In this document: piece after piece, positions 27,113 through 57,519 of the stretch
Layout of the letters: every line of letters starts with the position of its first letter
How positions within the stretch are numbered: the first letter of the stretch is position 1
From: a virus
Virus record (IMG/VR): IMGVR_UViG_3300036760_000945
Coordinates: 1-64,000 of that record
Strand: one strand, 5' to 3'
DNA: 64,000 bases
The notes under the pieces: model-generated
Database searches by the model: none
What the model was told of the DNA's origin: nothing
The model's input: the letters and a program-made list of their open reading frames with translations, nothing else
Made by a program: the position numbers and the translations under genes

Positions 27113-30100
27113 CTAGCTCCTCAGCTCCTTCGTGACCGCATCGAGGACAAAGGAAGAGAGTTTCTCGTTGCCAATATAGATGTTCACAATCTGTGGCGCA
27201 CCGGCCTTCTTGCCGCCCATTGGAATATAGGATGAACCGCCAGCAATTGTTACGCCGACAGGGCGCTGGAAAAGATTATGAATACGTTTCAGACTCTCCC
27301 ATTCGCTGTGTGGAATTACACGGCCGCCGACGATGCCTTCAGTGCCCTGTTCGCCAACTTCGACTGCGCCACTAGCAAGACCTCGAAGAATACCACCTGC
27401 GGCTTTCATGCTTTCAAGGTTATGAGCCAATACTCCGCCAGCAAAATAGCTATGTGTCTCGTCATCCGTTCCGAAGTTATAGGACGGTACCTGTTCTCCG
27501 TTCCAGGAAAGATCTGTTACAACAACGTCTTTTCCATCTTTGTCCAGTAGCGCATCTCCAAGTCGTAAAGTCTTGGCATGTGCCCACTCGCCATTAATAG
27601 ACATTGGGTGTCCCGCTGTTACGCCAAGGTGCTTATTGATAGTAATATAGCCACAGTTGCTTTTAGCAGAGTGATGAAACACTTTATTGACCCTCGCATT
27701 TACCGGCTCGCGAGTCTTGATATTCATCGAGAGAACCATATCTCCAACCTGAACCTCTTCAATGGGTTTGGTCAAGCCGGCTACCATTGTTATCATTGTT
27801 CCTGCAATGAAGCATGGTGCATTTCCTTCACCTTCGCCATGCTCGGTTGTGACTCCTGGCATCCGTAGAAGTTGATCAATCCACTTTTTGAGAATAGGTA
27901 TAGAAGTGGACATGGCGGTTTGCCAATCCATTAGGGCATCGTCTGTCAATAGACTGAGTGCGCCCTTGGCATTATCGGCATAGATCTGGAACTTGACCAT
28001 TGCGTCGTTCAGATCTTTTTGCTGTTTGGCATAGAAGGCAGTAATACCAGCCGACTCTTTCTCGAGCGCCATCTGCTGGATATACTGTGCGCGTTCGAGC
28101 TTGGTCTGCTCTTCCTGGAGTATCTTGTTCTGCTGGTAATACTCGATGGACTTATCGAGTTGTTCCTGTTGCATCTTTAGATTCTCTTTGAACTGTTTGT
28201 TCTGAAGAGCAAAACGCTGATCTTCAAGTTTCCAGAGTTCCTTCTGCCTATTCTTTTGTTTATCGATCTGCTCACCTTCAAGATCGTGCATAATTGTCTC
28301 GCGGCCCATTTGCCGTTCTGCAAGTTTGCGTTCACGCCCAGTCATGAAACGGATATTTTCGGCGTAGTCTTCCTGGCGCCAGCCCCACTGAAGTTCGCGT
28401 GTTTGGGTCTGATAGCCCCAGTCTTGCTGTGTCCAGCCGCGTTGCATTTGCGTACCGCGTTGATTGAGTGCCATGTTCTCCTGGAACTGCTGCGCGCCAA
28501 GGTTCATGCCTCTCTGCTGAAAACCGAATTGCCATCCCTGTTGTTGATAACCAAGTGCGCGTTGTGCGTCCTGCAGACCCCAAGTACCGCCCTGGTACAA
28601 CGGCCCAAACGGCTGCCCGGTCTGTGGATTGATTGTACCCGCATATTGTTGTATGCCAACGCCGGTCGTAAAGGCCAGATTCTGATTTACACGTTTCATC
28701 GCCAGGCCAGCAGAGGCCATTGCCTGATTGTACTGAGACTGGTTCTGCATGAACTGTAGTGCATACTGGCCACCAATATTGCCAATTGTTTCACCGCTGG
28801 CAAGTGTCATTGGCCCACCAGGAATTGCAATACCACCAGCCATGCCAGCAATGAAGGGTGCAGCCAGGCCGGTAGAGGTTTGCCAGTTTCTACCCCAGAT
28901 CTGTTGTGCAGTCTGGAGTCCAGTCTGGCCAACCTGTGCCAAACTACTCTGTCCCCAATTCAAACCTGTTGGCTGGTTGGTCCCCATACGTATATCGGTC
29001 AAGGCCATATTGTTAATACCCATAGTCTGGCCAGTGATCATGGGGAAGCGCTGGGCCATCAACTGTGGCGATATTCCGCCCGTTGCAGCAAGTGCAGCAA
29101 CTGCAGTTGGTTGTGCATTATACAACTGGTTATAGAACCATTCCTGGCCTTTGGGCATTGCACCAGAAGTGAACTGTTGATATAACTGGTTGCCGAGTGC
29201 AGGACGGTTAAATTGATAGGCTTGCTGTTGTAACTGCGCACCAATACCAATGCGATAATTGGCCTGAGCCTCCTGGGCACTCCAAGTCGCAGTCTGGCGA
29301 GCTGCTTCTTCTGGCAACATAGCGACAGCCTCACCACCAGATATATATTCTGTCTGAAGAGGTGCGGGAGTCCTAGTTAGACCTGCTGCGCGTTGTGCCA
29401 TCCATGCAGAGTAACGCGCCTTATAAACATCTCCAGCGGGTTTATTGTAAAGAATACCATTGGCTATTTGGTTATCCAGATACTTTTTCATATCTGTGTC
29501 TGTTCGAAGTTGACTTGCCGTTGTGACATTTCCAGGAAGCCACGCTGCAGCTGCACCAAAACCACTCGTGTATTGTCCACCAAGTCCCAATAGTGCTTGT
29601 TGGTTTGCAGTTGGATAGTTTTTACTAATATAGTTGGCCAGAGCACCCTGAACTGTAGTGGTTACCCCGGGAATAAGTGCAGTCCCTGCCGTTGTTTGTC
29701 CAAGAGCAGGCGGTCCCTGCAGGGTTCCATAAAGAGGAGCTGCCGCAAATGCACCTGCACCCATACCAGAGGCAGACAAAATACCTGCTGCCAGTTCACC
29801 TGGTTGCATACCTTGTTGATATTGTTCAGCAAAGCGCTGCCAATAACTCTGCGGAAGGTTTTGGTTTGAAACCAGAGTAAATGCTTTGGCAATTGCATCA
29901 GGAGCCAGATCTGTTCTTTGGCCCTGAGCGATCTGCATTGTTGTAGAAAGTGCTTTAACATATTGAGTTGTTCCAGGAAGAGTGCCAGCAAGTTGCCACA
30001 TTTGTGCATTGGGCTGTCCTGACATCATCTGGCGTAGAACTGTCCATTTCGCTGTTTCTTTATCCTGATCGGTACCACCTAGGCCAGCAGCAATACCTGT

Positions 30101-33100
30101 CGTAGAAAAAACAGTCAGGAAATTCTGCAGGGAGGCATATGCCCCACCAGTAGCAGCAACCTTTGACATTTGGTAGGCCACGGTTTCGGGGGCTTGCATT
30201 TTTTGATAAGTTTGTGCAGCTATATTAAGTCCTGCAACGCCCGCAGCAAGCGCAATTGCACCGGGGCCCTTTGCAAAACTCATCATCCCCGTACCTTCAC
30301 CTGCCCACTGGCCAAATTGTTGAGTAATAGCATAGGCACCAAGCCCAGCTACTCCCGTAGAAGTAATGTCGGATAGTAATGGGTTTTGCGCTATTATCAT
30401 CTTTCCAGCAGTTACTGGGTTGACCTGGGCACCATAAAGTGCAGTTATATTCTGTGCTGCACGTAATTGGTTATAGGGCACATAAGCAGCTCCACCTGCT
30501 TGCGAGGCAGCACCAGCAAAGGTATCTTGCATTGCCAACGCTTCTTGTTGACCCTGTCCTACACCACCCGTTATCATCCCCGCAATACGGGCCATGTACA
30601 TCATGCCCCAGCCCCCTAGCGCTCTCCTTAGAAAGGATCCTCTAAACAACTGTGGGGTACCGGTTATATCCTCCTGAAGTTCGCCCTCTTGCCTACCAAG
30701 ACGACCCAATTCGCCTTCTGCTCTGCGTATCTTGCTGGGTAGACCAGGTTCTACTGCACCGGCTCTATATTGTTCACGATAACCAGCAAGTTCTGCTGTT
30801 ACTGTTGCCCTTTGCTGCTGTACTTCAGCAAGTCTTATTTGCCGCTCAGAATTCTCATACTGCTTGAGTTCGGCCTTGTTCATATTTTCAAGAGAACCGC
30901 CGGCCTTATCGAGTAAACCTTTCTGTCTCTCCATTAACTGGTTATATTTCTCGACAGACTCTATTGGCAACTGGATCAGCTCTTTGGCGCCCGCGCCACG
31001 TCCGCGGCCAGCACCGCCAGTAGTACCCAAGTCCTCACTTCTACCAAGAATTGGGGAGCCAAACACACCCAGTTGCTGAAGTGCATCATAGGTCGCGCCG
31101 CCGGCTACAGCACCAGCCCGCAACATTTCATATTCTGCACCGGCACCCAGGCCCAGTTTCTCTGTAGCATATTTGAAAGCGCGTTGCACCTGTGGTGCAT
31201 TTGCGCCAATGCCCTTAAGCAGTTTCTGCACAGGGGCAATAGCAGCGCCAAACTGCTCAGGGGCATTCTCCAGGGCCCAGCCAATACGTTGGTACATCTC
31301 TCCTGCAGGTGCACCAAGTTGAGTTAAAACACCCTCAATGCCAGCCCGCATAGGTTCAAGATATGGCCTGGCGCCCTGTAACCACGCTACAGTAGCTTGA
31401 TAGTCACGCGAACTCATATAGGGAGGTTCTTGTAGTTCTCCAAAGGAACTCCATCCTCTGCCACCCCCACCGCCTCTACTTCCACCCGCGCCTCCACCCT
31501 GACCGCCACGCCAACCGCCGCCGCTCGGCGGTCTATTGCCGCCGCCGGCCATCATTCGAAGATCGGCTTCTCTTTGTTGGGCCCGCGCCGATGGAATATC
31601 TTGCTCTCTGCGGAAGCGCTGATAGGCCTCAGCATCCATTTTCGTCTGCTCAGGCGTCTTTGTTGGATATTCAGTTGCCCTCTGTGGCGCACCTGTAACC
31701 GCAGTTGCCGCCTGGCGCTGGCGCTCAATCGCAGCCTCTATTTGCCGATTTAGCCCTTGGCTTTCTTCTACCTTGCCAGGATCAATTATATCGGTACCAG
31801 GAATAAATGTTGCAGTAAGTTTTGTTTTGAGAGAAGCAATTGTATCCTCTGCTACACCAAGAGGAATACCGGTGCCAGCAAGCATTGTTTCCCAGGGCGC
31901 TCGAGCGGCAGCAGGTAGAGTAGCCATGGCCGCTGTAATTTCATGTCCGCCAGGGATTTTGCCTGCCATAAGATTTGCAATTGTACCCGTGGCCTGCCAC
32001 TGCTTATAGAGTTCAGGGAACTTCTCTTGGAACTTCGCTCCAAGTTGGAGAGCGCCAGCCTTTGTCGTCGCCATGCCGCCGAGAGCAGTCATGATAGGTA
32101 GTCCCATCATTTCGCCGTAGCCCTGTTTCTCTAGTTGTTGCCACAGGACTTCTTTTCTACCGGCAATTGGTACACCCTGGAGTTGCTTGAGCAAACCCTC
32201 ATAGCCACTTGCAGGTGCAAACATACCCGCAAGCATCTCGCTTGCAATCGGGTAATACTCTTTGCCTTTCTCTACGATCGGACGTGTAGCAATATCGGCA
32301 ATGCCATGTAGAAAGTTAGAAACCCCGCCTGCGGCAGCGCCCTCGGCACCTAATACATATTTGCTCTTGTAGCGTCCACCAGCACCCAACACGCCAGCCA
32401 TTAGTTCGCCCTCGGGGGTAAACTTGGCACTACCAAGCAGAGAAGCAAAAGGTACGCCGCTCTTGCCTGTAAGCCACTTATCGAGACCTGTCTGGTAGGG
32501 CTGTATCAAGCTCTCTGATACATCTGCAATGGTTTTGGCAGAATAGCCAGCCATTTGCATTGCAGGATACATGGGATTGCGGATATTATAGGTCTGCCCC
32601 ATAGTTGCCTGTGAATACACTGCCATTTGGCGGTGCACAGCCTGTGCCTCTTTCATACCGCCCCATTGTAGATCATTGCCCTTGCCAAGAGGATCAACGC
32701 CCTGAATAACATCCTTCATCGCATTGAAGGTCGAGGACGATCTCTGGTAAATACCAACATCCTGGAAGCGTGCTTTTGCTATACCCGTGGCCTTTTCGGG
32801 GGTCAGGGCTGCATTTTCTTTCCAGAAATCCTCGGTTGCAAAAGTTTCTAGTTTGCCCTCTGGAGTTCTACGCAACATCTGAATTACCGTTGCGATATCC
32901 CTGTCCAGATCGCCCTGAGAGGCTTGCGTACCCGCGGCAAAACCAACAAAAGCGCCCCCTCTATTCTCGGGGTTTGCGAGTGCGGCAGCCGCGGCCTCAG
33001 AGCCAACGCGAGCCGCATATTCACCATAGCCAATTTCCCGCATGGCCAGAGAACTCTCCGCGCGCGAACCTACGGGAATACGGGTAAAGGTAGCTGCGAG

Positions 33101-36091
33101 TTTGCCAGATGTGGCAATAGTTTCATATTGCTGCCTGGCACCGGGCAGCTCGCTCTCCGCAAAACCAAGCCTGCGAAGCACCAGATCCCTTGTATCGGGA
33201 GCCATAAGCATTTCGTTTGTCTGTAATCCGGGCAGACTTGCATAACGCAATGTTGCGCCACTCGGTACTTCCCTGGAGGCGATCTCTTTATAGGCCTCGC
33301 CTCGCTCAGAGAAGTTCTGTTTGAAGAGATTATATAGACCTGCAATACCACCAAGGGCAGCAGTGCGAGAGCCGGCCTGCTCCGCTGCCACGGCAGCCCT
33401 AAGTGCCTTGAAATAAGTACGCCCACCACCGCCGATCTCGGTCCCAAGTGGTGCATACTGCAGTTCCTGCATTGCCCTGGGTGCCACAAGCGAAACACCT
33501 GTCCTTGGGAAATAAGGTACGCCAGCAGTCTCTCCGGCATCGCCAATAACACCACGAAAAGCCTCAAGGCGCTCACGAGAAGGCATGCCTCGAGTGCCCT
33601 CTAGGACTGCCGAGGCCCGTTGCAGCAACGCGGGCGTCATCTCGATCGCGTTTTCTGGTCTATAGCCTTGCCCAGCCGCGACAGACTTGGTTTGTGCATA
33701 GAAGCCAAAGGCCTGTTTCCAGGCGCCCTGCATTCTTGTAGCGTCGCCGGGCACAGTATTCAGTAGGCCTAACCACTTTGACATCTCCGGCCATTTCTGC
33801 GATAGGCCAGCACCAAGTTCCATATTTACACGTGCGCGACCGGCATACTCGGGTACCATGTAGTTCATTGTTCTTGCATAGGGTACAGCACCTGCAGCAG
33901 TCTGTGTTAGAAGTGGATACTCGGCGCGGTTTCCCTCTACATCAGCCAAGATGGAAGTTGCTATCTGACTAGGCGTACCACCCTCTGCAGAAGTAGAATA
34001 TCTCTGTCTTGCAGCCGCCTCAAGTTGTGCCTCGGTAGCATTCTTGAATTCCGGCATAGTGCGCAGAACCTCTTTGGCCTGCATCGTCATGAAGTTGATC
34101 ATGTCTGGTGAAGCACGATAAGAGAAGGAAGGATCTCGCACTAACCCAATCTCGTGTTCCCTTAGATGGCGAATATTCTCAGGAGACTCCGGCGTCACGC
34201 CCTTGAAGAAAACCGTATTGAAAATATCCGCAGCCGCCTCCATACCCGTACCCGTGAAGGGCACATCGCTCTTTCGGGTCTGTCTTTGCCAGTATTGCCC
34301 AAGGCGTTCAAGATCTAACTGCATACCACCGGCGCCCTCGGGGAAATTCTTCCCAACCCAGCGAGACAACCTGGCTGCTTCTGGCGTACCAGTCTTACCT
34401 GCATATTCCTGGAAGATATTGAGGATCTGCGAGCGGGACTGCGCTGCCATGATGCCCATAACGTCCATTATGCCGGCACCCTTGACCTCGCCATGTACGT
34501 CGGTCACTGGTAGGTTAAGACCGCCTTGCTGGACAGAAGCAGTTGTGCCGGCAGAGAAAGCACCGATTTTCTCCCCAAGTCCACGCGCCTTCGCGCCAAC
34601 ATCATAAGCCATGCCATAAGCAGAGAGGTTTACTGTACTGATGTTGGATCTGTTAATTATAAGATCGGGGTATTGTGCCTGGAGTTGTGCAACTAGAGGC
34701 TCGGTAGAAACTCCCTTCGCTACGGCCTTACCCGTTACCGGATCCCAGAAAGAGGGAATATTCAAGTAGGCGGCACGTACCTGGAAATTGCTAACAGAAC
34801 CAGCCACGCCCATGAACTTACTGGGTTCGCCCACCTCGGTTGGGCGTCCAATAATTTCCTCTTCACCCCTTGGTAGTCTGAACCTGCCAAGTGTCAAACC
34901 AGGACCGCCAGCAGGCACCGTTCTACCAACAAGTCCCTTCTGAATTGCCAGAGAGCCCGGCCCCTCACCAAGTAGGGTGCGTAAGTCCTCTACTGGAATA
35001 TCGGGAGAGACATAGCGGCGTTGAAAACCAAAAGTCAGATTCTCGGGGCGTGCAGGATTCTCATAACTTACTGCTGCACCGGGGATGCCCGTGGGTGCAA
35101 ACAGGGTTCTTCTAAGTTCACCAATGCGCCCCTCTTTCTCTCCGGGGTAGAGAATATTGGCTCTCGCAAGATATTGTTCTCCGCCCGGAGTAATAACCTC
35201 GGGCTTGATGGCCCTCAACATAGGCCGACCCGTAGAATAATCCATCACATAGGCATTGGCTTGCTGTGTGCCGAAGAAGAGAGAAGAGGATTTGAAGGTT
35301 TTCTCGGGCTCGCGTGGGCCGAGCATTTCCCTGGTCAGAACTGTTTGCTCGCCAGGCTGGCCCGCATAAGTACTTCTAACACCACCGGCACCACCAAAGG
35401 CCTGTGGCTCTAGCATCCCAGACTTGCCATACATGAGACCATATTTAGCCAGCTCGGTCCAAGTATATGGCTTGCCCTCTACGATTCTCCCTGAGAGAGA
35501 GGCAATCCTTGCCTCAATATCTTTCCCAACATTCCCAGGCACCCAGGGTGGTATATCTTCAGCCTTGCCAGTTGTACTCTCGAAAGCAAACTGAACACGC
35601 CCCTGCATTCTCTGTCTTTGTGCAGCGCCTTGTGGGTTCCAGACATCAAGATATGCAGGGGGGATACCCAACATAGTATCGCCATAGGACAACAGTCTAC
35701 TAAAGGCTTTCTCTGCTGTTTCCCCAGGCCGCTTTGTCCCAAATGCGCCAGAGACAGTCATTGCCAGGCGCTCCGCAGGAGAAAAGACCTGTGGTGTCTC
35801 AGCGTATTCTTCTGTCTTCGGATTTACGCGAAACTTGAAAAAGCCAGTTTCCACATAGGGTTGCTGGCCTGCTGTTTGCCTGCCGATAAGATAAGTCTGT
35901 CCTAGAGGCCCCCCATATCCTTCTGCAATATCCAAAGGCAGCGTTTCCCCACTACCGCTCATTGTGATAAAGTAACGTGGATATTTCTCTACAAGCTGCC
36001 GCGAAATAGCATATTCGCCGCCCAGCATACTCCGTAATCTGGCAGTGATCGGATCGTTCTCTTGGCTGGAGAATGGAACTCTAAGTGGCAT
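27113..36091 (-). CDS. tape measure protein with putative N-terminal two-barrel RNA polymerase domain and C-terminal Hint domain
   Basis: ~2990 aa after tail chaperones; Ala/Gly/Gln-rich coiled coils; C-terminal AAGG...VGEQGTE motif; GAKARGLGEK, FTRIP and QGDLDRD motifs; AGGAG RBS before ATG 36091. Confidence 0.85.
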   Translation of the reverse strand: MPLRVPFSSQENDPITARLRSMLGGEYAISRQLVEKYPRYFITMSGSGETLPLDIAEGYGGPLGQTYLIGRQTAGQQPYVETGFFKFRVNPKTEEYAETPQVFSPAERLAMTVSGAFGTKRPGETAEKAFSRLLSYGDTMLGIPPAYLDVWNPQGAAQRQRMQGRVQFAFESTTGKAEDIPPWVPGNVGKDIEARIASLSGRIVEGKPYTWTELAKYGLMYGKSGMLEPQAFGGAGGVRSTYAGQPGEQTVLTREMLGPREPEKTFKSSSLFFGTQQANAYVMDYSTGRPMLRAIKPEVITPGGEQYLARANILYPGEKEGRIGELRRTLFAPTGIPGAAVSYENPARPENLTFGFQRRYVSPDIPVEDLRTLLGEGPGSLAIQKGLVGRTVPAGGPGLTLGRFRLPRGEEEIIGRPTEVGEPSKFMGVAGSVSNFQVRAAYLNIPSFWDPVTGKAVAKGVSTEPLVAQLQAQYPDLIINRSNISTVNLSAYGMAYDVGAKARGLGEKIGAFSAGTTASVQQGGLNLPVTDVHGEVKGAGIMDVMGIMAAQSRSQILNIFQEYAGKTGTPEAARLSRWVGKNFPEGAGGMQLDLERLGQYWQRQTRKSDVPFTGTGMEAAADIFNTVFFKGVTPESPENIRHLREHEIGLVRDPSFSYRASPDMINFMTMQAKEVLRTMPEFKNATEAQLEAAARQRYSTSAEGGTPSQIATSILADVEGNRAEYPLLTQTAAGAVPYARTMNYMVPEYAGRARVNMELGAGLSQKWPEMSKWLGLLNTVPGDATRMQGAWKQAFGFYAQTKSVAAGQGYRPENAIEMTPALLQRASAVLEGTRGMPSRERLEAFRGVIGDAGETAGVPYFPRTGVSLVAPRAMQELQYAPLGTEIGGGGRTYFKALRAAVAAEQAGSRTAALGGIAGLYNLFKQNFSERGEAYKEIASREVPSGATLRYASLPGLQTNEMLMAPDTRDLVLRRLGFAESELPGARQQYETIATSGKLAATFTRIPVGSRAESSLAMREIGYGEYAARVGSEAAAAALANPENRGGAFVGFAAGTQASQGDLDRDIATVIQMLRRTPEGKLETFATEDFWKENAALTPEKATGIAKARFQDVGIYQRSSSTFNAMKDVIQGVDPLGKGNDLQWGGMKEAQAVHRQMAVYSQATMGQTYNIRNPMYPAMQMAGYSAKTIADVSESLIQPYQTGLDKWLTGKSGVPFASLLGSAKFTPEGELMAGVLGAGGRYKSKYVLGAEGAAAGGVSNFLHGIADIATRPIVEKGKEYYPIASEMLAGMFAPASGYEGLLKQLQGVPIAGRKEVLWQQLEKQGYGEMMGLPIMTALGGMATTKAGALQLGAKFQEKFPELYKQWQATGTIANLMAGKIPGGHEITAAMATLPAAARAPWETMLAGTGIPLGVAEDTIASLKTKLTATFIPGTDIIDPGKVEESQGLNRQIEAAIERQRQAATAVTGAPQRATEYPTKTPEQTKMDAEAYQRFRREQDIPSARAQQREADLRMMAGGGNRPPSGGGWRGGQGGGAGGSRGGGGGRGWSSFGELQEPPYMSSRDYQATVAWLQGARPYLEPMRAGIEGVLTQLGAPAGEMYQRIGWALENAPEQFGAAIAPVQKLLKGIGANAPQVQRAFKYATEKLGLGAGAEYEMLRAGAVAGGATYDALQQLGVFGSPILGRSEDLGTTGGAGRGRGAGAKELIQLPIESVEKYNQLMERQKGLLDKAGGSLENMNKAELKQYENSERQIRLAEVQQQRATVTAELAGYREQYRAGAVEPGLPSKIRRAEGELGRLGRQEGELQEDITGTPQLFRGSFLRRALGGWGMMYMARIAGMITGGVGQGQQEALAMQDTFAGAASQAGGAAYVPYNQLRAAQNITALYGAQVNPVTAGKMIIAQNPLLSDITSTGVAGLGAYAITQQFGQWAGEGTGMMSFAKGPGAIALAAGVAGLNIAAQTYQKMQAPETVAYQMSKVAATGGAYASLQNFLTVFSTTGIAAGLGGTDQDKETAKWTVLRQMMSGQPNAQMWQLAGTLPGTTQYVKALSTTMQIAQGQRTDLAPDAIAKAFTLVSNQNLPQSYWQRFAEQYQQGMQPGELAAGILSASGMGAGAFAAAPLYGTLQGPPALGQTTAGTALIPGVTTTVQGALANYISKNYPTANQQALLGLGGQYTSGFGAAAAWLPGNVTTASQLRTDTDMKKYLDNQIANGILYNKPAGDVYKARYSAWMAQRAAGLTRTPAPLQTEYISGGEAVAMLPEEAARQTATWSAQEAQANYRIGIGAQLQQQAYQFNRPALGNQLYQQFTSGAMPKGQEWFYNQLYNAQPTAVAALAATGGISPQLMAQRFPMITGQTMGINNMALTDIRMGTNQPTGLNWGQSSLAQVGQTGLQTAQQIWGRNWQTSTGLAAPFIAGMAGGIAIPGGPMTLASGETIGNIGGQYALQFMQNQSQYNQAMASAGLAMKRVNQNLAFTTGVGIQQYAGTINPQTGQPFGPLYQGGTWGLQDAQRALGYQQQGWQFGFQQRGMNLGAQQFQENMALNQRGTQMQRGWTQQDWGYQTQTRELQWGWRQEDYAENIRFMTGRERKLAERQMGRETIMHDLEGEQIDKQKNRQKELWKLEDQRFALQNKQFKENLKMQQEQLDKSIEYYQQNKILQEEQTKLERAQYIQQMALEKESAGITAFYAKQQKDLNDAMVKFQIYADNAKGALSLLTDDALMDWQTAMSTSIPILKKWIDQLLRMPGVTTEHGEGEGNAPCFIAGTMITMVAGLTKPIEEVQVGDMVLSMNIKTREPVNARVNKVFHHSAKSNCGYITINKHLGVTAGHPMSINGEWAHAKTLRLGDALLDKDGKDVVVTDLSWNGEQVPSYNFGTDDETHSYFAGGVLAHNLESMKAAGGILRGLASGAVEVGEQGTEGIVGGRVIPHSEWESLKRIHNLFQRPVGVTIAGGSSYIPMGGKKAGAPQIVNIYIGNEKLSSFVLDAVTKELRS
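27419..27814 (-). other. Hint auto-processing domain (132 aa, BIL-type; +1 residue is Leu)
   Basis: CFIAGTMI...IEEVQVGD...VTAGHP...LRLGD...YNF...YFAGGVLAHN/L. Confidence 0.9.
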
Positions 36092-36356
36092 TTGCAGAGG
36101 CTCCTGGTATACTTTCCATAATAGCAATTTGTTGTTCTATCACCGACCACTCCAAGAGCCAGATATGTGGTTGGTCGAGTACCCCACCGGCAACAAGTGG
36201 AAGGCCAGTAGATCTGCATCTTTCATACAAGGTCATAGCCTCAGGTTTTTCTGGGAAATCAACCTTGAGGCCTGCCTTCAGTTCATTGAGTAGACCATAA
36301 TATTCTCTAATCTCGTCTCGTAACTTCTCCAATTTCCCCGCGACTAGGCTTCCCCC
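36081..36356 (-). CDS. tail assembly chaperone, -1 frameshift extension (gpGT-like)
   Basis: Overlapping -1 frame ORF between chaperone and tape measure; LPLVAGGVLDQP motif. Confidence 0.75.
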   Translation of the reverse strand, partial: GGSLVAGKLEKLRDEIREYYGLLNELKAGLKVDFPEKPEAMTLYERCRSTGLPLVAGGVLDQPHIWLLEWSVIEQQIAIMESIPGASANAT

Positions 36357-41566: not shown

Positions 41567-43087
41567 TTAAGCTACGATAGGCTCGGTATCCTTTCGGATA
41601 CCCGGTTTCTTGCTATTATCGGGCAGATTGCCTATGGGTTTTTGTGGTGCAGCCGCAGTCTCTTCCTTGATCTTAACCTTCTCTTCTTCGATGTCAGGAA
41701 TGTCACCAAAGAGGGACATGAGATGCTCCTGCGAGCCTAACTTGTATTTCGCGCGGATGCCAGCCTCATTGATAAGTGCAGTACGATCTACAGGCAACAT
41801 CGGTGCCCAGGAAATGATAAGCGGTGTAGCAATATGTTCCTCTGTGATCTCGTTGATACCCTTGATAGACATCATCTTCAATAAGATCCTGCAGAACTTA
41901 GCCAGGCCGACTGTCCAGAAGATGCGCTCCATCTCAGCGTGTGTGACCAGCGGCCACATCCTTGTAGAGAGGGTCAAGCTCGAACGTTGCGAACCCTCGT
42001 CTTCCCCATCTGCAACTGCCGGATGAATGGCCTCGCGGCGATAGATATCGTAAAGTTCTCCGCCAAGTCTAAGCATTACATCCGAAGCAGTTTTGAGAGA
42101 GACCGTCAGTAGGTCCGGGTTTGCCTCATTACCCGCAAGGCCTGTAGTACTGCCAAGGTCAAGGATGGGCCGGCCATCTATCTTCTTGACCTGTACAGCG
42201 CCTCTTACATTGCGCATTGCAATTGGCTGATGCGAGTCGTCGCTGACCGCATCGCCGGTATCTGCCCAGCGTAAGTTTATTTCTCTGATAACACCCTTGA
42301 TCATCTCAGAGATAATGGAGTTGCCAAGGAATGTAGTTGTCCGTAAGTGTGGGATATATTCTATTGGGACAACCCCAAAGGGATTTACGCCCTTTTGAGG
42401 CGTGTCACCGAACATGATTGTCTGCCCGTTGATCGCAATCTCGTATTCTTCTTCTGTCCAGTGTTCCGTATAGAAATACTTGAGGTCATTCTCGCTAAGG
42501 GCATACTCGGTCTTATAGGACTTGATATCGTCTTTGGTAATCTCCCTAACGATCCAGGCCTCTCTTAGCTCCCAATAATTGGCGCCTTTGGGAAAACCGA
42601 TGAACTCTTTTGGCGAGGGATTGAAAATGCCAATCCGCTTTTCTATTGGCAGCCAACTAGCACTAAAGACACAGCCGCGGAGGTATTGCGAGATAATTCC
42701 ATTCGAGATGAATAATGCGCCGCCGCCGTTGTCTTCAAAGACATTTTTCAGTGCCTTCTCGACCGCCTTGCCTTGTGTTTTCTTGCCCTTCTCTACATCA
42801 GCCAATATTCTGACCGGTACGCCTCCGTAGTGAATGCTGTCCAGTGTCTGCCCGAATAACGCCGATGTATGTCGCTCACAGGTACCCTTCAGCGGATTGA
42901 TCTTGATAGGGTATTTATCTATCTTCTTCCCGGAGGCAGTATCTACGGTGAAGTCGTCCAATTTGGCGCCGGAATACCAATCCTCGAGCATGGCATAGTT
43001 CTCGAGTTGGGTCATATAGGTCGTATACGGGAACCCCTTGAGTTCCTGAAGAGTAAAGGGTGCAGAGAAGTTTGTTAGCTCAGCCAT
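41567..43087 (-). CDS. portal protein (SPP1 gp6-like)
   Basis: NPFGVVPIEYIPH...GNSII; ISWAPMLPVD; size and position. Confidence 0.88.
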   Translation of the reverse strand: MAELTNFSAPFTLQELKGFPYTTYMTQLENYAMLEDWYSGAKLDDFTVDTASGKKIDKYPIKINPLKGTCERHTSALFGQTLDSIHYGGVPVRILADVEKGKKTQGKAVEKALKNVFEDNGGGALFISNGIISQYLRGCVFSASWLPIEKRIGIFNPSPKEFIGFPKGANYWELREAWIVREITKDDIKSYKTEYALSENDLKYFYTEHWTEEEYEIAINGQTIMFGDTPQKGVNPFGVVPIEYIPHLRTTTFLGNSIISEMIKGVIREINLRWADTGDAVSDDSHQPIAMRNVRGAVQVKKIDGRPILDLGSTTGLAGNEANPDLLTVSLKTASDVMLRLGGELYDIYRREAIHPAVADGEDEGSQRSSLTLSTRMWPLVTHAEMERIFWTVGLAKFCRILLKMMSIKGINEITEEHIATPLIISWAPMLPVDRTALINEAGIRAKYKLGSQEHLMSLFGDIPDIEEEKVKIKEETAAAPQKPIGNLPDNSKKPGIRKDTEPIVA

Positions 43088-43747: not shown

Positions 43748-46414
43748 CTATCGAGGCCACGTCGTTGACGAACCTGCCTCGTCTCGCCTGCGGGTACGTA
43801 CTTCATTTCTATCATGTCGGCGCCCCGAGACAAGTCCAGGGCTATCATCGCCAGTCTCGCTGCTGTTTTCCTCTCCAAAATCGCCATAATAAGCCCGGAT
43901 CGCAAACGCACCCATTGCCAACGTTGCAACAACGTCTTGCGCCAGCTTGCCACCACTTGCTTTATCCGCGATAGGATCATAGTTTTTTAGTTGGCTTCCT
44001 ATGCCAGTACAGATCGAAGGCCATGAGAGCATCTTGCTTTCGAGCGATAGTCTCAGTGCAACAAGGTAACTATACCTTTTTGCGCCCGAAAAGTCAAGAC
44101 CGGTTATTGAAATGACCGACTTCTTCTTGCCGTAGATATAATCCGTGCTGATCAGCTCCGCCGTACTCTTCTGGGGCCCGGTATTGTCCACGGCAGCCAA
44201 TATGGGTCCATAAGTATCGATCCACTCGATAAAACGGCTCACAAAAGGCATGATCGAGCCTGCGCCATTACCCCACCAGAAAGCAACTATTGGACTATGC
44301 ACTGGCGCCTCTGTGACATCAAAAACGATGATACAGGGAGCATTTCGGGAGGGTGCCACGCCTGTGCCTGGGTCGCCAATGATGAAATATTGGCGTCCTG
44401 CCTTACGTGGCTGTCTGAGATAGAACGCACCCATGTGCGGCAAGGTCTCCATCTCATAACCAGCCTCGCCTTTGTCGATGGCATTCAGGACTATCTCTGA
44501 TTGCCCGGCATCCAAGCAGGGATCAACAGTCGAGGCCGGGAAGTAAGAACCCTTACCCTGTGGGCGGTCCCCGGTCATGAAACGGTTGTGCAGTTCTTTG
44601 GGGATCATCTTCAGCGCAAAGCGGATCTGTTTATCGGTCGTATTCTTGTTATACTTGGTGTCAATGTTGAATACCAGCCCGTCCTCTTTGTCCGCTGCTG
44701 CCATATCATAGAGTTGCCACAGCTCGGGGTTTTCCCACGGGTTAGAGATGAGCGAAAGCCGGCCTAGATAGGGGCGGTTCTCGGCAGTGCCGCCAGTAAG
44801 GCGGGTGACTAGGTTTGTCACCACCACCCCCAAATCGTCTATTTTCCCGGCTTCTTCGATATTGATCCAGTCGCCGCGGTAGGAAAAGATGTTTTCTGCA
44901 GTCCCCTCCTCACCCAATGTCTGAAATTCCAGAAGCGAGGAGAATTTCTTGGTGCCAATATAATACTCGAGGGCAACCTGCGGCCAGGGGCGCTTTGGCG
45001 CAGAGACAATGAGTTTTTCAAAGGGTGTGCCCTCGACCTGCTCCATTAGCGCTCGATACATAAGCATTGACTGCCAGGCACTGGGTGCAACATTCATAAA
45101 CTTGAATAATTGCGTCAGCGCCGCATGATAGGCGGCACCCATCACCACGCCGACGGTTTTGCCAGAATTATGAGAGACAACACCCTCCATAACATAATTT
45201 TCGTAGCCGGGAACATGGATATCATATAGATCTATTTCTCCAACATCCTCTATTTTAGTAATAATTGGTGTATAATAGTCCCACTTATTATTCTTGGGAG
45301 AGAAACATGGATCAGGAAGAACTTCAAATACTTGTTGATCAATTTGGGACACAGACGGCTGTAGCAAAGCGCCTCGGGATAAGACAGCAAGATCTCTGGT
45401 ATCTGGTAAAGAAAAATCACTGGCATATTCACTATGATATAACTCGCCGCAGAAAGAAGGGCTCGAAACTTGATCCTTATTCTCTAATACTGAAACATCT
45501 GGGAGATCTTGGTTGGAGTTGCCAGAGAATTGTTGATGCCCTCGAACTAAAGACCGATCCTGAGCACGTTCGTCGCTGGTTGGTTGTCCATTGTCCCCAA
45601 AAACGGAACAGGAAGCACGGTGGTGTGGGGGAAAGAAGTCCTGCCTTTGTCGATGGTGACTATTATAATAGGAAGGATAATTCTTATAACTTTGTACCCG
45701 CGCCAGAGGGGTATATGGGTCAGAAGAAATCAAATGGTTGGGTTGCAGAACATCGTCTTGTCGTTGAAAAGGAACTTGGCCGACTTCTTCATCCGGGCGA
45801 GGTTGTACATCATATTGATGGGGATGGAAAGAATAATCTCCCTGGAAACCTGATGACTTTCCCGACAAATCGCGAACATCTACTGTGGCACTGGGAGCAA
45901 ATGCAGGCAAAATATGAGGAGCGATTAGAACATCTCCGAGCCGTAGATCGCGAGTACGTACAAACCCTTGGCTGGCAGTCATAAAACGATGATCCAGAGA
46001 GACGGTAATTGTATTACCATTAGAGAAGGAAAGTCTTTTTGCCCTGGCCTTTCCCTTGTAGAACGGCAGTGTTGCCTGGACCATTGCCCATCCTGATATG
46101 CCGCGGGCTAAAACAACTGGCGCCCTCTTATTATCAAGAAGCCACCTAAATGATACATATCTCCCAAGTTCTACATCATAGAGATGACTATCAATGTCGG
46201 CGCAACTGATCCCACAGATGGCAACAATAAACGATTGCGTTGCCATACACATTGTTTCTTGCCATTTACCCTCTGACTCGAAGTTCCAGTCCAGCATCCA
46301 TCCGTGTTCTTGGTTTGGTTTTCTGAACCAGTAATCACAGAAAATATTGGGATTGGCCGCCCCGGCCCTAAGAATTTCAATCTCGGCAGCAGTCATTGCG
46401 TGAATCGAGGGCAT
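43748..46414 (-). CDS. terL: terminase large subunit with intein
   Basis: Spliced Walker A GIS/SGKT; VAPS..QS; Walker B WINIEEAG; LISNP; nuclease IIGDPG, AVDNTG, QDVVATLAM. Confidence 0.9.
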   Translation of the reverse strand: MPSIHAMTAAEIEILRAGAANPNIFCDYWFRKPNQEHGWMLDWNFESEGKWQETMCMATQSFIVAICGISCADIDSHLYDVELGRYVSFRWLLDNKRAPVVLARGISGWAMVQATLPFYKGKARAKRLSFSNGNTITVSLDHRFMTASQGFVRTRDLRLGDVLIAPHILPAFAPSATVDVRDLSGKSSGFQGDYSFHPHQYDVQPRPDEEVGQVPFQRQDDVLQPNHLISSDPYTPLARVQSYKNYPSYYNSHHRQRQDFFPPHHRASCSVFGDNGQPTSDERAQDRSLVRGHQQFSGNSNQDLPDVSVLENKDQVSSPSFCGELYHSEYASDFSLPDTRDLAVLSRGALLQPSVSQIDQQVFEVLPDPCFSPKNNKWDYYTPIITKIEDVGEIDLYDIHVPGYENYVMEGVVSHNSGKTVGVVMGAAYHAALTQLFKFMNVAPSAWQSMLMYRALMEQVEGTPFEKLIVSAPKRPWPQVALEYYIGTKKFSSLLEFQTLGEEGTAENIFSYRGDWINIEEAGKIDDLGVVVTNLVTRLTGGTAENRPYLGRLSLISNPWENPELWQLYDMAAADKEDGLVFNIDTKYNKNTTDKQIRFALKMIPKELHNRFMTGDRPQGKGSYFPASTVDPCLDAGQSEIVLNAIDKGEAGYEMETLPHMGAFYLRQPRKAGRQYFIIGDPGTGVAPSRNAPCIIVFDVTEAPVHSPIVAFWWGNGAGSIMPFVSRFIEWIDTYGPILAAVDNTGPQKSTAELISTDYIYGKKKSVISITGLDFSGAKRYSYLVALRLSLESKMLSWPSICTGIGSQLKNYDPIADKASGGKLAQDVVATLAMGAFAIRAYYGDFGEENSSETGDDSPGLVSGRRHDRNEVRTRRRDEAGSSTTWPR
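45167..46204 (-). mobile_element. intein (346 aa) in the terminase Walker A, lacking an in-frame endonuclease
   Basis: CADIDSHL...VSLDHRFMT...DLRLGD; LYDIHVPGYENYVMEGVVSHN/S; central part has no recognisable motif in this frame. Confidence 0.92.
45307..45984 (+). CDS. HTH-HNH homing endonuclease encoded antisense inside the terminase intein
   Basis: GGGAG RBS, TATAAT at 45271; TQTAVAKRLGI HTH; EHRLVVEKELGRLL..GEVVHHIDGDGKNNLPGNL HNH motif. Confidence 0.92.
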   Translation: MDQEELQILVDQFGTQTAVAKRLGIRQQDLWYLVKKNHWHIHYDITRRRKKGSKLDPYSLILKHLGDLGWSCQRIVDALELKTDPEHVRRWLVVHCPQKRNRKHGGVGERSPAFVDGDYYNRKDNSYNFVPAPEGYMGQKKSNGWVAEHRLVVEKELGRLLHPGEVVHHIDGDGKNNLPGNLMTFPTNREHLLWHWEQMQAKYEERLEHLRAVDREYVQTLGWQS

Positions 46415-46777: not shown

Positions 46778-47674
46778 CTATTCTACTTCTTCCAGATAGA
46801 CAACGAAGCCATTTTTGACGAGCACCCACAAATTCTCGCCAACCCTGCCAAATTCCTGGCGATCAAGTTCGGTGGGGGCCTCAAGAAGTTTGATAATGTC
46901 TCCCTCGTGAAGTCTACCACGAATACTCGCGCCCAGAGTTGGACTTGAGCGCAGTGCCGTTGATTGTACACACTTCATCTTCCAGACCTTGGGAATTGAC
47001 GATATTTCAGTGGCTTTCGCCTGCTCTTTGATAACTGTGCCCAAGATAGCGGTATAGGGGAACAGGAATACCTCATCGTAGTCCTGCCCCAGGGTCTTGA
47101 GTGTGATTTCCAGTTCTTCTGGGGTACAGGCACCCATAAAAATGCCTGGGACCTGTTTATACCCACGTGCTTGTGGCTGATTTAGTGTTTTCCAAGAGAG
47201 TAAAGGCGAGAAATAGAGGTTATCTGGTCCAATTCTGTCTTTAAGGCCGCGGAATACCTGCCCGAGTGCTGTTTTTGTCATATTCGGGCTCGCAAGTGCA
47301 CCGTAAACACAGATTTTTATGGGAAAACCCACATCGGCCAGAAATCTTGTCAGTCTTTCGGCTATATCTTCTGGTAAGGGGCCCAATGTCTCATAAACAC
47401 GGACAAAAACACGCGGAATTTGGTATTTCTGGACCACATCGAGCATCGGTGCCAACCAGGCGAGTTTTCTTCTCCAGGTTGGAGAGAAAATCAAAGCCGC
47501 CTCAAGCTGGTTCCCCTTTATCTCCCAGAATAACCGTTCAATTTCCGGCATCTTGGTGTCGGCGTCCACGCTGACTATAACGAAGTCAACCCCAGTGTTC
47601 GCGAGCCGTGGAACGGTATCCCCGGGCAATCCCTGTAGGATGTCATCCTTACTGAGAAGTACACCTATTTTCAT
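46778..47674 (-). CDS. protein with TIM-barrel-like N-terminus and C-terminal SH3-like domain
   Basis: ALRSSPTL...IRGRLHEGDII...GENLWV SH3b-like tail. Confidence 0.6.
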   Translation of the reverse strand: MKIGVLLSKDDILQGLPGDTVPRLANTGVDFVIVSVDADTKMPEIERLFWEIKGNQLEAALIFSPTWRRKLAWLAPMLDVVQKYQIPRVFVRVYETLGPLPEDIAERLTRFLADVGFPIKICVYGALASPNMTKTALGQVFRGLKDRIGPDNLYFSPLLSWKTLNQPQARGYKQVPGIFMGACTPEELEITLKTLGQDYDEVFLFPYTAILGTVIKEQAKATEISSIPKVWKMKCVQSTALRSSPTLGASIRGRLHEGDIIKLLEAPTELDRQEFGRVGENLWVLVKNGFVVYLEEVE

Positions 47675-48218
47675 TGTGCCTCATTGCCAATATTACCTCA
47701 AGCTCTCTATCGAACTCATCAATGTTCGAAAATCTCGGTACCGAACTCGCTTCATTCCACGGTTGGGCAATCAAGAGTGCTGGAATGCCCAACTTCTTGG
47801 CTTTTAGGGCTACATCGGCAATATCGTCCACTATAAACAGTGGTTTTAGCGATGCAATGATCTCCATCTTGTCTCCACCGTTCATCAGCAGTGTGCCTAA
47901 CCGAAAATCCTCTGCATCCAGCCAGAACTGAGTTATACCAACGGCCTCTTTGGGCCGAGAGGTTACAAACCAGATCTTGAAATCTCTTGCAAGCAATTCG
48001 TTATAGACCTGTACGCCTAGAGAAATGGGCTTCAGATCGATATAGGTCTTGGGGTTGTCCACGAACCACTTTACTTCTTTCCTCCAGTACGGATGTCGCT
48101 GCTCAAGACTGACCAGGCGCCTATTTTCGTAGCCAAAGTTATAGCAATACTTCCCCTCGAAGTCGGCCAAAACCCCATCTATGTCCAGAACTACTTTCAG
48201 AGAATTGTTTCTATCCAT
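47649..48218 (-). CDS. HAD-family 5'(3')-nucleotidase/phosphatase
   Basis: LDIDGVLADF; FVTSRP; K; IVDD; QPWN. Confidence 0.88.
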   Translation of the reverse strand: MDRNNSLKVVLDIDGVLADFEGKYCYNFGYENRRLVSLEQRHPYWRKEVKWFVDNPKTYIDLKPISLGVQVYNELLARDFKIWFVTSRPKEAVGITQFWLDAEDFRLGTLLMNGGDKMEIIASLKPLFIVDDIADVALKAKKLGIPALLIAQPWNEASSVPRFSNIDEFDRELEVILAMRHNENRCTSQ

Positions 48219-48234: not shown

Positions 48235-49071
48235 TTATTCTTTCTTGAGATATTTCAGTCGTACCCAGCCGAGTGGTATCCTGGCCCAGTCATTTACAAT
48301 ATCGCTTACCACAACAATCTGCCCAATAGCTATGCGGCTAACTATTTTACAATTGAGGCCATCGTTAGGGGTTTTAAAGATCCATGAGGCCGCCAAGACG
48401 GTATAGTTTCCTACTGGCGGGGGCGAAGGAGGAAGAATTGCCGGCGGCGTAGATGCGAATTTATACAATTCTTCTACGGTCCCGTGGAATAGGTTTTGAT
48501 CTACGTCAAGACTTTCGCAACCGTATGCTTCGCCTTTACCTCTATCTGTATACTGCCAAAACGTCCATGTTGCCCATGGCCTGGGAGTCTTTATAAAGAT
48601 TTCCCAACTATACCATGCCAGCCAGAATGGGAATATTTTCCAGCCAATGTCTACCGAACCAAATTCGTTCCAGTAATAATAACCGGAATAAATCGCGGGG
48701 ATCTTCCCAAGTTTATCCTTTACATACTGTAGGAAGTTCCACAACCTCCCCCGTGCTTCGGCAGGACTTGGCTGGCCACTTGTTAACTTTTGCTCAAAGT
48801 CACAAACGGGCGGCAATTCACCGGGATCATCCTTGAGCAAACCCGTAAACAGCTTAGCCTGTTCGAGTTCACTCATTCTAAAATCCAGATAGTGATATGC
48901 ACCGCGTAAAAGCCCTACTTTCTTTGCGGCTCTCCAGTATTCTAAGAAACGTAAATCTGCAATACGCTGAGACGCCTTGATATATACAAATGTTGCACCG
49001 TTCGCAAGCATTTTTGCAAAGTCTACTTCACCATCCCACCAACTTATGTCTACGCCAATTGCTCTAGTCAT
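48235..49071 (-). CDS. GH25 muramidase endolysin with C-terminal SH3-like domain
   Basis: GVDISWW; YIKAS; RGAYHY; PPVCDFE; FWQYT; VDQNLF. Confidence 0.93.
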   Translation of the reverse strand: MTRAIGVDISWWDGEVDFAKMLANGATFVYIKASQRIADLRFLEYWRAAKKVGLLRGAYHYLDFRMSELEQAKLFTGLLKDDPGELPPVCDFEQKLTSGQPSPAEARGRLWNFLQYVKDKLGKIPAIYSGYYYWNEFGSVDIGWKIFPFWLAWYSWEIFIKTPRPWATWTFWQYTDRGKGEAYGCESLDVDQNLFHGTVEELYKFASTPPAILPPSPPPVGNYTVLAASWIFKTPNDGLNCKIVSRIAIGQIVVVSDIVNDWARIPLGWVRLKYLKKE

Positions 49072-49375
49072 GATTTTTCTCCTTGCTATCAAGATCTTTG
49101 AGTAACAACGAGGTATCCATGCCAATGTCTCCAAGAAACTGGTATAGCGAGGTTTCGAGGCCCGATATCTGCTCGTGGGGCAAACTAAACTGGAGATGAT
49201 AATTTATCGCTTCAAGTACTTCGTGTAACACCGTTGACTCCTGCGACTGCCTGTGTTGGTCCGGGTCAACATTGATAATCTGTTTCACGGTATGGAGTCT
49301 CCCGGCCTGATCCATGCCGCCGTTCTCCATAGAGGGCGAATATTTCAATTTATAATTGTAGCCGAATATTCTCAT
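49064..49375 (-). CDS. phage zincin-like protein
   Basis: STVLHEVLEAINYH (HExxE variant). Confidence 0.7.
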   Translation of the reverse strand: MRIFGYNYKLKYSPSMENGGMDQAGRLHTVKQIINVDPDQHRQSQESTVLHEVLEAINYHLQFSLPHEQISGLETSLYQFLGDIGMDTSLLLKDLDSKEKNHD

Positions 49376-57447: not shown

Positions 57448-57519
57448 GCCCCTATAGCTCAATGGATAGAGCAACTGCCTTCTAAGCAGAGGGTCTGGGT
57501 TCGAGTCCCAGTAGGGGCA
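57448..57519 (+). tRNA. tRNA-Arg(TCT), CCA not encoded
   Basis: GCCCCTA/TAGGGGC acceptor stem; GCTC/GAGC D arm; CTTCTAA anticodon loop; CTGGG-TTCGAGT-CCCAG T arm. Confidence 0.93.

Follow-up and report, generated by a model that had tools for sequence, protein, structure and literature searches.

A phage terminase-like gene with an intein and a putative HNH homing endonuclease gene on the opposite strand

Where does an intein keep its homing endonuclease when the middle of its own reading frame encodes nothing recognisable, and how does a host gene remain open across a second gene that is read in the opposite direction? These questions are raised by a stretch of 64,000 nucleotides (nt) of viral DNA (positions 1 to 64,000 of IMG/VR record IMGVR_UViG_3300036760_000945; hereafter the window), which is part of an 82,851-bp IMG/VR viral contig and in which a gene resembling that of the phage terminase large subunit (TerL) is split at its Walker A motif by an intein. 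The answer favoured here, and considered likely, is that the element is a mobile intein in the P-loop of TerL and that its homing endonuclease (HEN) is not an in-frame domain of the intein, but the product of a separate antisense gene with two helix-turn-helix (HTH) units and an HNH_3 domain. A sequence-only reading of this DNA, made by a model, had proposed an intein with a separate antisense endonuclease, a host frame kept open across it and removal of the antisense-derived stretch by splicing; this structural reading is well supported by the comparative evidence presented below, although the claim to novelty that accompanied it is not.

The intein and the gene on its opposite strand

The TerL precursor reads ...AICGIS/CADIDSH...MEGVVSHN/SGKTVGVV (slashes mark the junctions), in which the intein splits the Walker A loop GIS/SGKT (Table 1). 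The nucleophile at intein position 1 is Cys71 of the precursor, directly following ...AICGIS. Block B reads SLDH, with Ser in place of the Thr of TxxH, and its His72 is invariant in nine aligned inteins, as are Asp328 and Asn346 (alignment A3). The Pfam family Intein_splicing (PF14890) is matched at 49.6 bits against a cut-off of 35.8 (E 4.8e-13). Furthermore, an uninterrupted CGI(S/A)-(S/T)GKT stands at the insertion site of the intein-less homologues P0025, P0027, and P0029. The canonical intein (C...HN/S) within the TerL Walker A that had been proposed from the letters is thus borne out by its residues, by the Pfam score and by homologues in which CGIS-SGKT is continuous. The two Hint lobes are both predicted by AlphaFold2 at a predicted local distance difference test score (pLDDT) of ~90, and the lobe model has 29 Foldseek matches among solved inteins at E <= 1e-3 (6frg, 2in0, 4o1r), including the Ssp DnaB mini-intein (6frg; E 2e-7) and the Mtu RecA mini-intein (2in0; root-mean-square deviation (rmsd) 1.9 Å over 97 residues). 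Between the lobes, intein residues 107-308 are modelled at a pLDDT of ~30 with zero secondary structure, and no Pfam match was obtained for the linker in the TerL frame (45341-45958 of the window, minus strand), in agreement with the earlier remark that the minus frame is motif-less there; the linker appears not to be a folded domain. A search of 1.84 billion representative proteins with the linker peptide gave one relative only, P0024, and the peptide is therefore unusable for counting the family. From the intact residues and the essential role of TerL, we infer that the intein undergoes protein splicing.

The gene on the plus strand encodes a protein that matches HNH_3 (PF13392) at 35.5 bits against a cut-off of 24.8 (E 7.5e-9) and nine PHROG families annotated as 'HNH endonuclease' (best 2e-17). 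Its catalytic motif is EVVHHIDGDGKNNLPGNL...REH, and H168, H169, N177, N181, and H191 are invariant in alignment A4. In the AlphaFold2 model (mean pLDDT 81.8), two three-helix units, at residues 3-36 and at residues 56-95, are followed by a beta-beta-alpha core at 129-185, and the protein ends in a long helix. The N-terminal part resembles bipartite HTH DNA-binding domains at a middling level (GcrA DNA-binding domain, Z 6.1; Tc3 bipartite DNA-binding domain, Z 5.9), and its Pfam matches of the Cro/YdaS HTH type are weak and under the cut-off. The core likewise shows a middling resemblance to the HNH endonuclease I-HmuI (1u3e; Z 5.8, rmsd 3.2 Å over 68 residues, 25% identity). These HTH and I-HmuI matches were obtained from an exhaustive aligner only; a Foldseek search with the complete HNH model yielded nothing at E <= 0.001, and by sequence against the PDB the E-value of I-HmuI is only 0.13. 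I-HmuI, an enzyme of phage group I introns, shares with the window protein the beta-beta-alpha-metal core and the modular build of nuclease and DNA-binding units; however, it is encoded within an intron, on the sense strand, and the order and type of its DNA-binding modules are different. The intact HNH protein of 225 amino acids (aa) that had been read from the plus strand at 45307-45984 is confirmed by the Pfam and PHROG matches, with its HTH part matched weakly, and the gene is regarded as that of the putative homing endonuclease of the intein.

The two coding regions overlap in a defined manner. The HNH start codon lies 46 residues before the intein end, and the stop codon (45982-45984) is opposite intein residue 74, two residues past the block-B His. 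The segment of the Hint N-lobe that is overlapped is FMTASQGFVRTRDLRLGD, with ~30 codons shared, as the sequence-only reading had noticed for the HNH C-terminus. HNH orthologues with 43-65% identity are present at the same place in five other loci (L007, L009, L087, L088, and L089). As a separate observation, the HNH open reading frame (ORF) of L012 (2742..3449, plus strand) and of L025 (2974..3672, plus strand) extends across the greater part of the Hint N-lobe, up to a point opposite intein residue 12 in the former and residue 34 in the latter; double coding of a folded domain would be far more extensive in these two loci than in the window.

Table 1. Positions of the terminase-like gene, its intein, the antisense gene and the neighbouring portal gene in the window
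Feature	Position	Strand	Basis or remark
Terminase-large-subunit-like gene	43748..46414	-	888-aa precursor, 542 aa once spliced; directly upstream of the portal gene
N-extein, aa 1-70, ending in the first Walker A half (...AICGIS)	46205..46414	-	Alignment with intein-less P0025, P0027, P0029
C-extein, beginning SGKTVGVV (second Walker A half), stop codon included	43748..45166	-	Alignment and junction
Class-1 intein, 346 aa: Cys1, block-B His72, Asp328, C-terminal His-Asn, then Ser+1	45167..46204	-	Pfam Intein_splicing
Hint N-lobe, intein residues 1-105, predicted folded	45890..46204	-	pLDDT 79-97, beta strands
Linker (intein residues 106-309) as read in the TerL frame; disordered by prediction, without a family	45278..45889	-	AlphaFold2, Pfam
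Hint C-lobe, intein residues 310-346 (YYTPIITKIE...VVSHN)	45167..45277	-	pLDDT 88-96; kept in alignment A3
Antisense HTH-HTH-HNH_3 endonuclease gene, 225 aa plus stop, ATG start	45307..45984	+	Pfam, PHROG, AlphaFold2 model
Zone of double constraint: last ~30 HNH codons, predicted to form a helix at the C-terminus, antisense to folded Hint residues 74-105	45892..45984	both	Coordinates, divergence
TATAAT, -10-like box, 36 nt upstream of the HNH ATG	45271..45276	+	Candidate; antisense to YYT codons at the start of the Hint C-lobe
GGGAG, Shine-Dalgarno-like, 6 nt before the HNH ATG	45296..45300	+	Antisense to conserved linker Ser-Pro
Portal gene	41567..43087	-	phrog_64, 5e-12; just downstream on the same strand

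The TATAAT and GGGAG that had been pointed out upstream of the HNH gene are both present, and similar signals recur in related loci: a perfect TATAAT is found 24-44 nt upstream of the HNH ATG in seven of eight, and a GGAG-type motif at -10 to -12 in six of eight. With a conserved -10 box and Shine-Dalgarno sequence as its basis, the promoter of the HNH gene is no more than a candidate. The sequence-only reading further proposed that nuclease expression is uncoupled from late terminase expression and that antisense transcription may damp terL; neither proposal is supported here.

Selection on the two strands

The decisive question is whether the openness of the TerL frame across the HNH gene could be fortuitous. 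The phase of the two genes is fixed: each codon of the minus frame is the reverse complement of positions 2 and 3 of an HNH codon together with position 1 of the next codon. Across the HNH gene of the window, the TerL phase contains 0 minus-frame stops, and the two remaining antisense phases contain 6 and 13. When the codon order of the gene was shuffled, the mean was 9.1 stops and 0 was never obtained in 2000 shuffles; when synonymous codons were shuffled, the mean was 5.5 stops, with P(0)=0.0005. The same stop-free outcome was found in the shuffle test for seven other loci. The sequence-only reading had estimated roughly 10 stops for a random antisense frame of this length, close to the codon-order shuffles.

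The comparison between HNH genes embedded in an antisense frame and their free-standing relatives leads to the same result on a larger scale. The embedded set (35 genes, 7,506 codons) contains 0 stops in the TerL phase, whereas the free-standing set (61 genes, 10,558 codons) has 3.44 stops per 100 codons and no stop-free member; at the free-standing rate, ~258 stops would be expected in the embedded set. Stops in the terL frame of homologues had been named in advance as a finding that would speak against the proposed architecture, and they are absent from all 35 genes. A Phe followed by Ile, Met, Thr, Asn, or Lys creates an antisense stop whatever the codon choice; such Phe-[IMTNK] junctions follow 0 of 83 Phe residues in the embedded genes and 51 of 281 in the free-standing ones (Fisher P=9e-7). 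Because these dipeptides are absent from the embedded HNH proteins, the openness of TerL has shaped the amino-acid sequence of the nuclease itself, and the ban on stop codons is strong enough to exclude specific dipeptides from it. The shuffles and the two gene sets, taken as comparative evidence, establish that the TerL frame is kept stop-free by selection across the whole HNH gene in one fixed phase. Total Phe is also lower in the embedded proteins (83 in 7,506 codons, against 281 in 10,558 free-standing codons; loci L007-L166), and the antisense constraint may deplete Phe itself, beyond the forbidden dipeptides.

The divergence at the three codon positions discloses which of the two proteins is conserved. 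Pairwise among the window, L007, L009, L087, and L088, divergence at HNH codon positions 1/2/3 is 0.35/0.32/0.61 over residues 1-195. Position 3 of HNH corresponds to position 2 of the minus codon, which is the most variable position of the linker frame; therefore, the minus peptide is free to vary beneath a conserved HNH protein. Where the HNH gene overlaps the Hint N-lobe, in its last 30 codons, divergence is flattened to 0.31/0.35/0.35, as expected from two simultaneous constraints. In line with this, the same DNA of the window and L007 is 65% identical when read as HNH and 38% identical when read as linker. At the level of sequence comparison, this pattern demonstrates that purifying selection acts on the HNH protein, whereas the linker peptide in the TerL frame is constrained only to remain without stop codons. 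In these ~680 nt of sense/antisense double coding, the two constraints are cleanly separable, one at the protein level on one strand and one of having no stop codons on the other.

Related loci, mobility and alternative explanations

Among the TerL homologues, P0024, P0026, and P0124 have long inteins of the same kind as in the window, and the contig of P0026 (L002/L007) carries the antisense HNH gene with 65% identity mentioned above. P0028 (714 aa) has a mini-intein at the same site, GI(A)/...HN/TGKT, that lacks both the linker and HNH, and no intein is present in its sister, P0037; P0028 may represent either the state before HNH invasion or the product of HNH loss. A distant member of the TerL family, P0131 (855 aa), contains an in-frame LAGLIDADG intein after GSGK, three residues downstream of the insertion site in the window, which indicates that the same P-loop is targeted by different intein types. 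The first intein residue also varies: it is Ser in L087 (1555..479, minus strand), apparently Thr in L088, and Ala, then Cys at +1, in P0124, and these non-Cys starts may mean a different splicing class.

When viral and metagenome contigs were scanned with an alignment of HNH proteins, 114 HNH_3-like ORFs were obtained, and 45 of them are wholly enclosed by an open antisense frame longer than 300 aa, with an identical phase in every case; a scan of viral contigs with the single window protein had given no match. The host ORFs of the embedded genes match Intein_splicing at E < 0.001 in eight of ten tested, five of them above the Pfam cut-off, and the tested hosts include a Terminase_6N/6C protein and an SNF2/ResIII-like protein. 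The insertion points are before [ST]GK[ST], between GK and T of Walker A, and before CGLGKT; the last is that of L023 (910..3459, minus strand), in which the antisense HNH gene occupies, in the same phase, the intein of the SNF2/ResIII-like protein. In L024 (122..4102, minus strand), the antisense HNH layout is found in a 1327-aa protein with a second, weak Hint_2 match. In genome contigs, the alignment scan gave 29 HNH ORFs that fit the motif, 0 of them within a long antisense frame, and its best matches have only the HNH core in common. Antisense-HNH inteins look common among the environmental phage relatives of the window HNH.

The distribution of the inteins on the TerL tree, computed with the intein columns removed, is scattered: nine of 112 proteins are carriers, and eight changes are needed. 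The sister of the window TerL is the intein-less P0025 (86% identity, support 100), and further intein-less sisters are paired with carriers in P0026-P0057 (support 97), L009-P0058 (100), and, for the mini-intein, P0028-P0037 (100). The identity to the window is higher for HNH than for the extein in L007 (65% vs 55%), L087 (48% vs 36%), and L089 (43% vs 29%); HNH and the Hint lobes are at least as conserved between lineages as the essential extein. Scattered carriers and the conservation of HNH and Hint fit horizontal spread.

A mobile intein with a separate antisense nuclease could function as follows. TerL would be translated straight through as the 888-aa precursor, after which the two Hint lobes would dock and splicing would remove the intein together with its disordered loop of ~200 aa, restoring GIS-SGKT. 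The HNH gene would be transcribed from its own -10 box and translated from the Shine-Dalgarno sequence inside the intein. On co-infection, the HNH protein would nick or cut an intein-less terL near the Walker A codons, and repair would copy the intein and the nuclease gene together. As to its origin, a free-standing HNH gene probably invaded a mini-intein such as that of P0028 at the same site, and the family supports the model of intein evolution in which the splicing domain comes first and the endonuclease invades later. A further proposal is more speculative, and its truth is doubtful: all antisense-HNH_3 inteins may descend from one dual-coding element that uses the conserved DNA of the nucleotide-binding motif to hop between the Walker A loops of NTPase genes that are not related to one another (those of several terminase families, at two loop positions, and of an SNF2-like helicase). 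The antisense layout may then be adaptive: the nuclease would have its own promoter and would not depend on late terminase expression for its timing, and the element would be protected from frameshift decay by the essential host frame.

The same data also bear on the alternative explanations. If the element were a decaying relic that has lost homing, with the HNH ORF or the intein heading for loss, the open frames would be inherited and not selected for mobility; the element is present in a single copy in the genome, and an HNH-less mini-intein at the same site, as in P0028, is what a homing cycle predicts. Nevertheless, the invariant catalytic residues H168, H169, N177, N181, and H191, the third-position bias of divergence, which reflects ongoing purifying selection on HNH, the intactness of every embedded HNH ORF inspected, and the conservation of HNH beyond that of the essential extein between lineages render this reading unlikely. 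It is quite improbable that the HNH protein is an accessory nuclease of packaging, as in HK97-like cos phages, and is located in terL because of a functional linkage. HNH genes beside terminase genes are common in phages (PMC3592412), and this one sits within terL itself; however, P0025 and ~100 family members are without both intein and HNH, which makes HNH dispensable for packaging, the same type of HNH occurs in the same phase in the intein of the SNF2/ResIII-like gene of L023, and the protein has two predicted HTH units and a core whose best structural match, at a middling Z of 5.8, is the homing enzyme I-HmuI.

Two cultured phages share the layout and bear on a third alternative. In Pseudoalteromonas phage PHS3 (KX912252.1; L251 1053..3179, minus strand), the minus frame is open for 708 aa, and the intein GGAG/CVHP...VHHN/SGKS encloses the HNH gene; GenBank gives a 391-aa 'terminase large subunit', cut back to the C-extein, plus a separate HNH gene. 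In Pectobacterium phage Ymer (OP748252.2; L250 1002..3266, minus strand), the intein lies in a 754-aa 'hypothetical protein' adjoining the portal gene, and its 232-aa antisense HNH ORF (L250 2375..3073) is unannotated. The codon phase in both phages is that of the window. Public annotation of the two loci is wrong or incomplete, and the antisense layout explains a recurrent mis-annotation in the form of truncated terminases and missed HNH genes; gene callers and intein surveys that consider in-frame domains only will miss such elements. Two cultured carriers also make the proposal testable at the bench. The annotation of PHS3 as a truncated terminase and a separate HNH gene corresponds to a fractured gene with a split intein, in which trans-splicing would unite two TerL polypeptides, one made up of N-extein and IntN and one of IntC and C-extein, and the HNH gene would be situated between their coding regions on the opposite strand. 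Free-standing endonuclease genes between the halves of split inteins are documented (Dassa et al. 2009; PMC2677866); a free-standing-type HEN gene lies there between the intein halves, and the model of HEN invasion is the same. In such fractured genes, however, the host gene consists of two ORFs, whereas selection maintains one continuous host frame here: an open frame is not required of a split gene, yet all 35 embedded genes (7,506 codons, ~258 stops expected) are stop-free, PHS3 is open for 708 aa and the window has a single ORF of 888 aa. On the evidence of these open frames, this reading is given very little probability. That the minus-frame linker is a real but unrecognised folded domain, such as a novel in-frame endonuclease, with the plus-strand ORF as a by-product, is extremely improbable, since the long open frame and the weak alignment between relatives (e.g., QGDYSFHPHQYDV) on which it could draw are set against a pLDDT of ~30, no secondary structure, no Pfam match, one match in 1.84 billion proteins, the second codon position as the most variable of the linker frame, and weakly conserved patches that are the antisense shadow of the HNH motif VVHHIDGDGKNN. 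A group I intron was also considered for the insertion and rejected, with the frame open and the intein blocks intact.

Several points weigh against the mobile antisense-HNH intein favoured here. Splicing, a plus-strand transcript or protein, and cleavage of the intein-less site are all deduced from sequence features. With respect to expression, a simple scan for the sigma-70 consensus found no -35 partner and called no promoter at 45271. The HNH-less mini-intein P0028 also retains the YYT codons that lie under TATAAT, and the box could for that reason be in part a consequence of intein coding. The alignments behind the structure models contain few sequences (9 and 12), and repeated loss, like gain, can produce a sporadic distribution. 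Finally, the terminase label of the host gene is indirect. The TerL extein of the window and P0025 have no terminase match in Pfam or PHROG, a PDB profile search with the extein family was empty, and hhalign of that family against a Pfam-positive TerL gave no match. The label draws on a borderline Pfam match of a homologue, on Walker A, and on portal synteny: P0076, a homologue with 44% identity, matches Terminase_6N at 25.5 bits against a cut-off of 22; ~100 homologues found by protein search are each ~540 aa in length; and a Walker A near the N-terminus (G68...G418 K419 T420) is invariant once the intein is removed. The motif, the protein size and the synteny are consistent with a terminase. 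A tblastn search of 50,697 phage records with the whole window TerL gave no match.

Known systems and genomic setting

The sequence-only reading stated that no example of this architecture had been described. This does not hold, because antisense and out-of-frame HENs in inteins have been published (bioRxiv 10.1101/2025.01.02.630785; bioRxiv 10.64898/2026.09.14.751524). Gosselin, Arsenault, and Gogarten surveyed actinophage inteins and reported antisense LAGLIDADG, antisense VSR-like (EDxHD), and frame-3 EndoVII-like HENs, with non-canonical inteins in four host proteins, the terminase large subunit among them (bioRxiv 10.1101/2025.01.02.630785). Earlier antisense LAGLIDADG cases are those of Gorbalenya 1998 and Gogarten 2002, as cited in the same preprint. 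The actinophage inteins resemble that of the window in having a separate antisense HEN ORF between the splicing blocks, an open extein/intein frame and a middle without recognisable structure; their authors too propose that a free-standing HEN invaded the intein, and they describe a sporadic, apparently mobile distribution. By contrast, the nuclease here is HNH_3 with two HTH units and not LAGLIDADG or VSR-like, HNH occurring in that survey in-frame only; the hosts here are uncultivated environmental phages and phages of Pectobacterium and Pseudoalteromonas, not actinophages; and the family here is large, has a single fixed codon phase and shows a measurable dipeptide constraint.

An out-of-frame LAGLIDADG gene under frame-specific selection has been reported in a cyanobacterial DnaX intein (Gorbalenya 1998, as cited; Phillips, DeSimone, and Gogarten, bioRxiv 10.64898/2026.09.14.751524). 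As in the window, the endonuclease is read in an alternative frame that overlaps the intein; selection is purifying in the homing endonuclease frame and relaxed in that of the intein, alleles with a mini-intein occur alongside alleles with no intein, and secondary invasion of a mini-intein is proposed. The DnaX case differs in that the gene is a LAGLIDADG gene, described as a +2 ORF, in cellular dnaX, whereas an antisense HNH gene in a phage terminase is concerned here. The ShiLan insertion, in which a DNA methylase of an actinophage conceals an HNH endonuclease read out of frame (Arsenault et al. 2025; PMC11855218), likewise has HNH overprinted on a stop-free insertion in the host frame and behaves as an actively homing element; however, its HNH is described as out-of-frame and not antisense, no splicing domain was found and the insert is thought to stay as a loop, whereas a complete Hint domain flanks the insert in the window. 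P-loop inteins with an in-frame nuclease share the target region, the Hint fold, and the presumed homing cycle; their nuclease belongs to the host polypeptide and is produced only together with the host protein, unlike that of the window.

The literature search did not find an antisense HNH intein described and found HNH in inteins in-frame only; most subscription journals lay outside the search, and this absence is not proof. The layout itself is known, and only the HNH type of antisense-endonuclease intein seems undescribed. Because its nuclease is HNH_3 and not LAGLIDADG or VSR-like, the window intein represents a widespread, fixed-phase HNH_3 type outside the described sets, and the 'rare' non-canonical layout with the nuclease on the other strand exists also with an HNH nuclease.

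With regard to the genomic setting, a separately assembled Logan contig from a sediment metagenome run, which is probably the source sample of the window, contains the same 2.7 kb with zero differences; an intein-less variant was not found in that run, with one identical contig only. No other public run, and no RNA run, was found to contain this stretch. Elsewhere in the window, a 3004-aa ORF (27113-36127, minus strand) matches Pretoxin-HINT PF07591 (1e-12) at residues 2778-2902, followed by ~100 C-terminal residues, which suggests a polymorphic-toxin-like architecture within a giant phage protein. Among the neighbouring genes, an NT5C-like 5'-deoxynucleotidase (47649-48218, minus strand; score slightly under the cut-off) and an endolysin of the GH25 lysozyme type (48235-49134, minus strand; 2e-32) are encoded, and a tRNA-Arg(TCT) gene is located at 57448-57519 on the plus strand.

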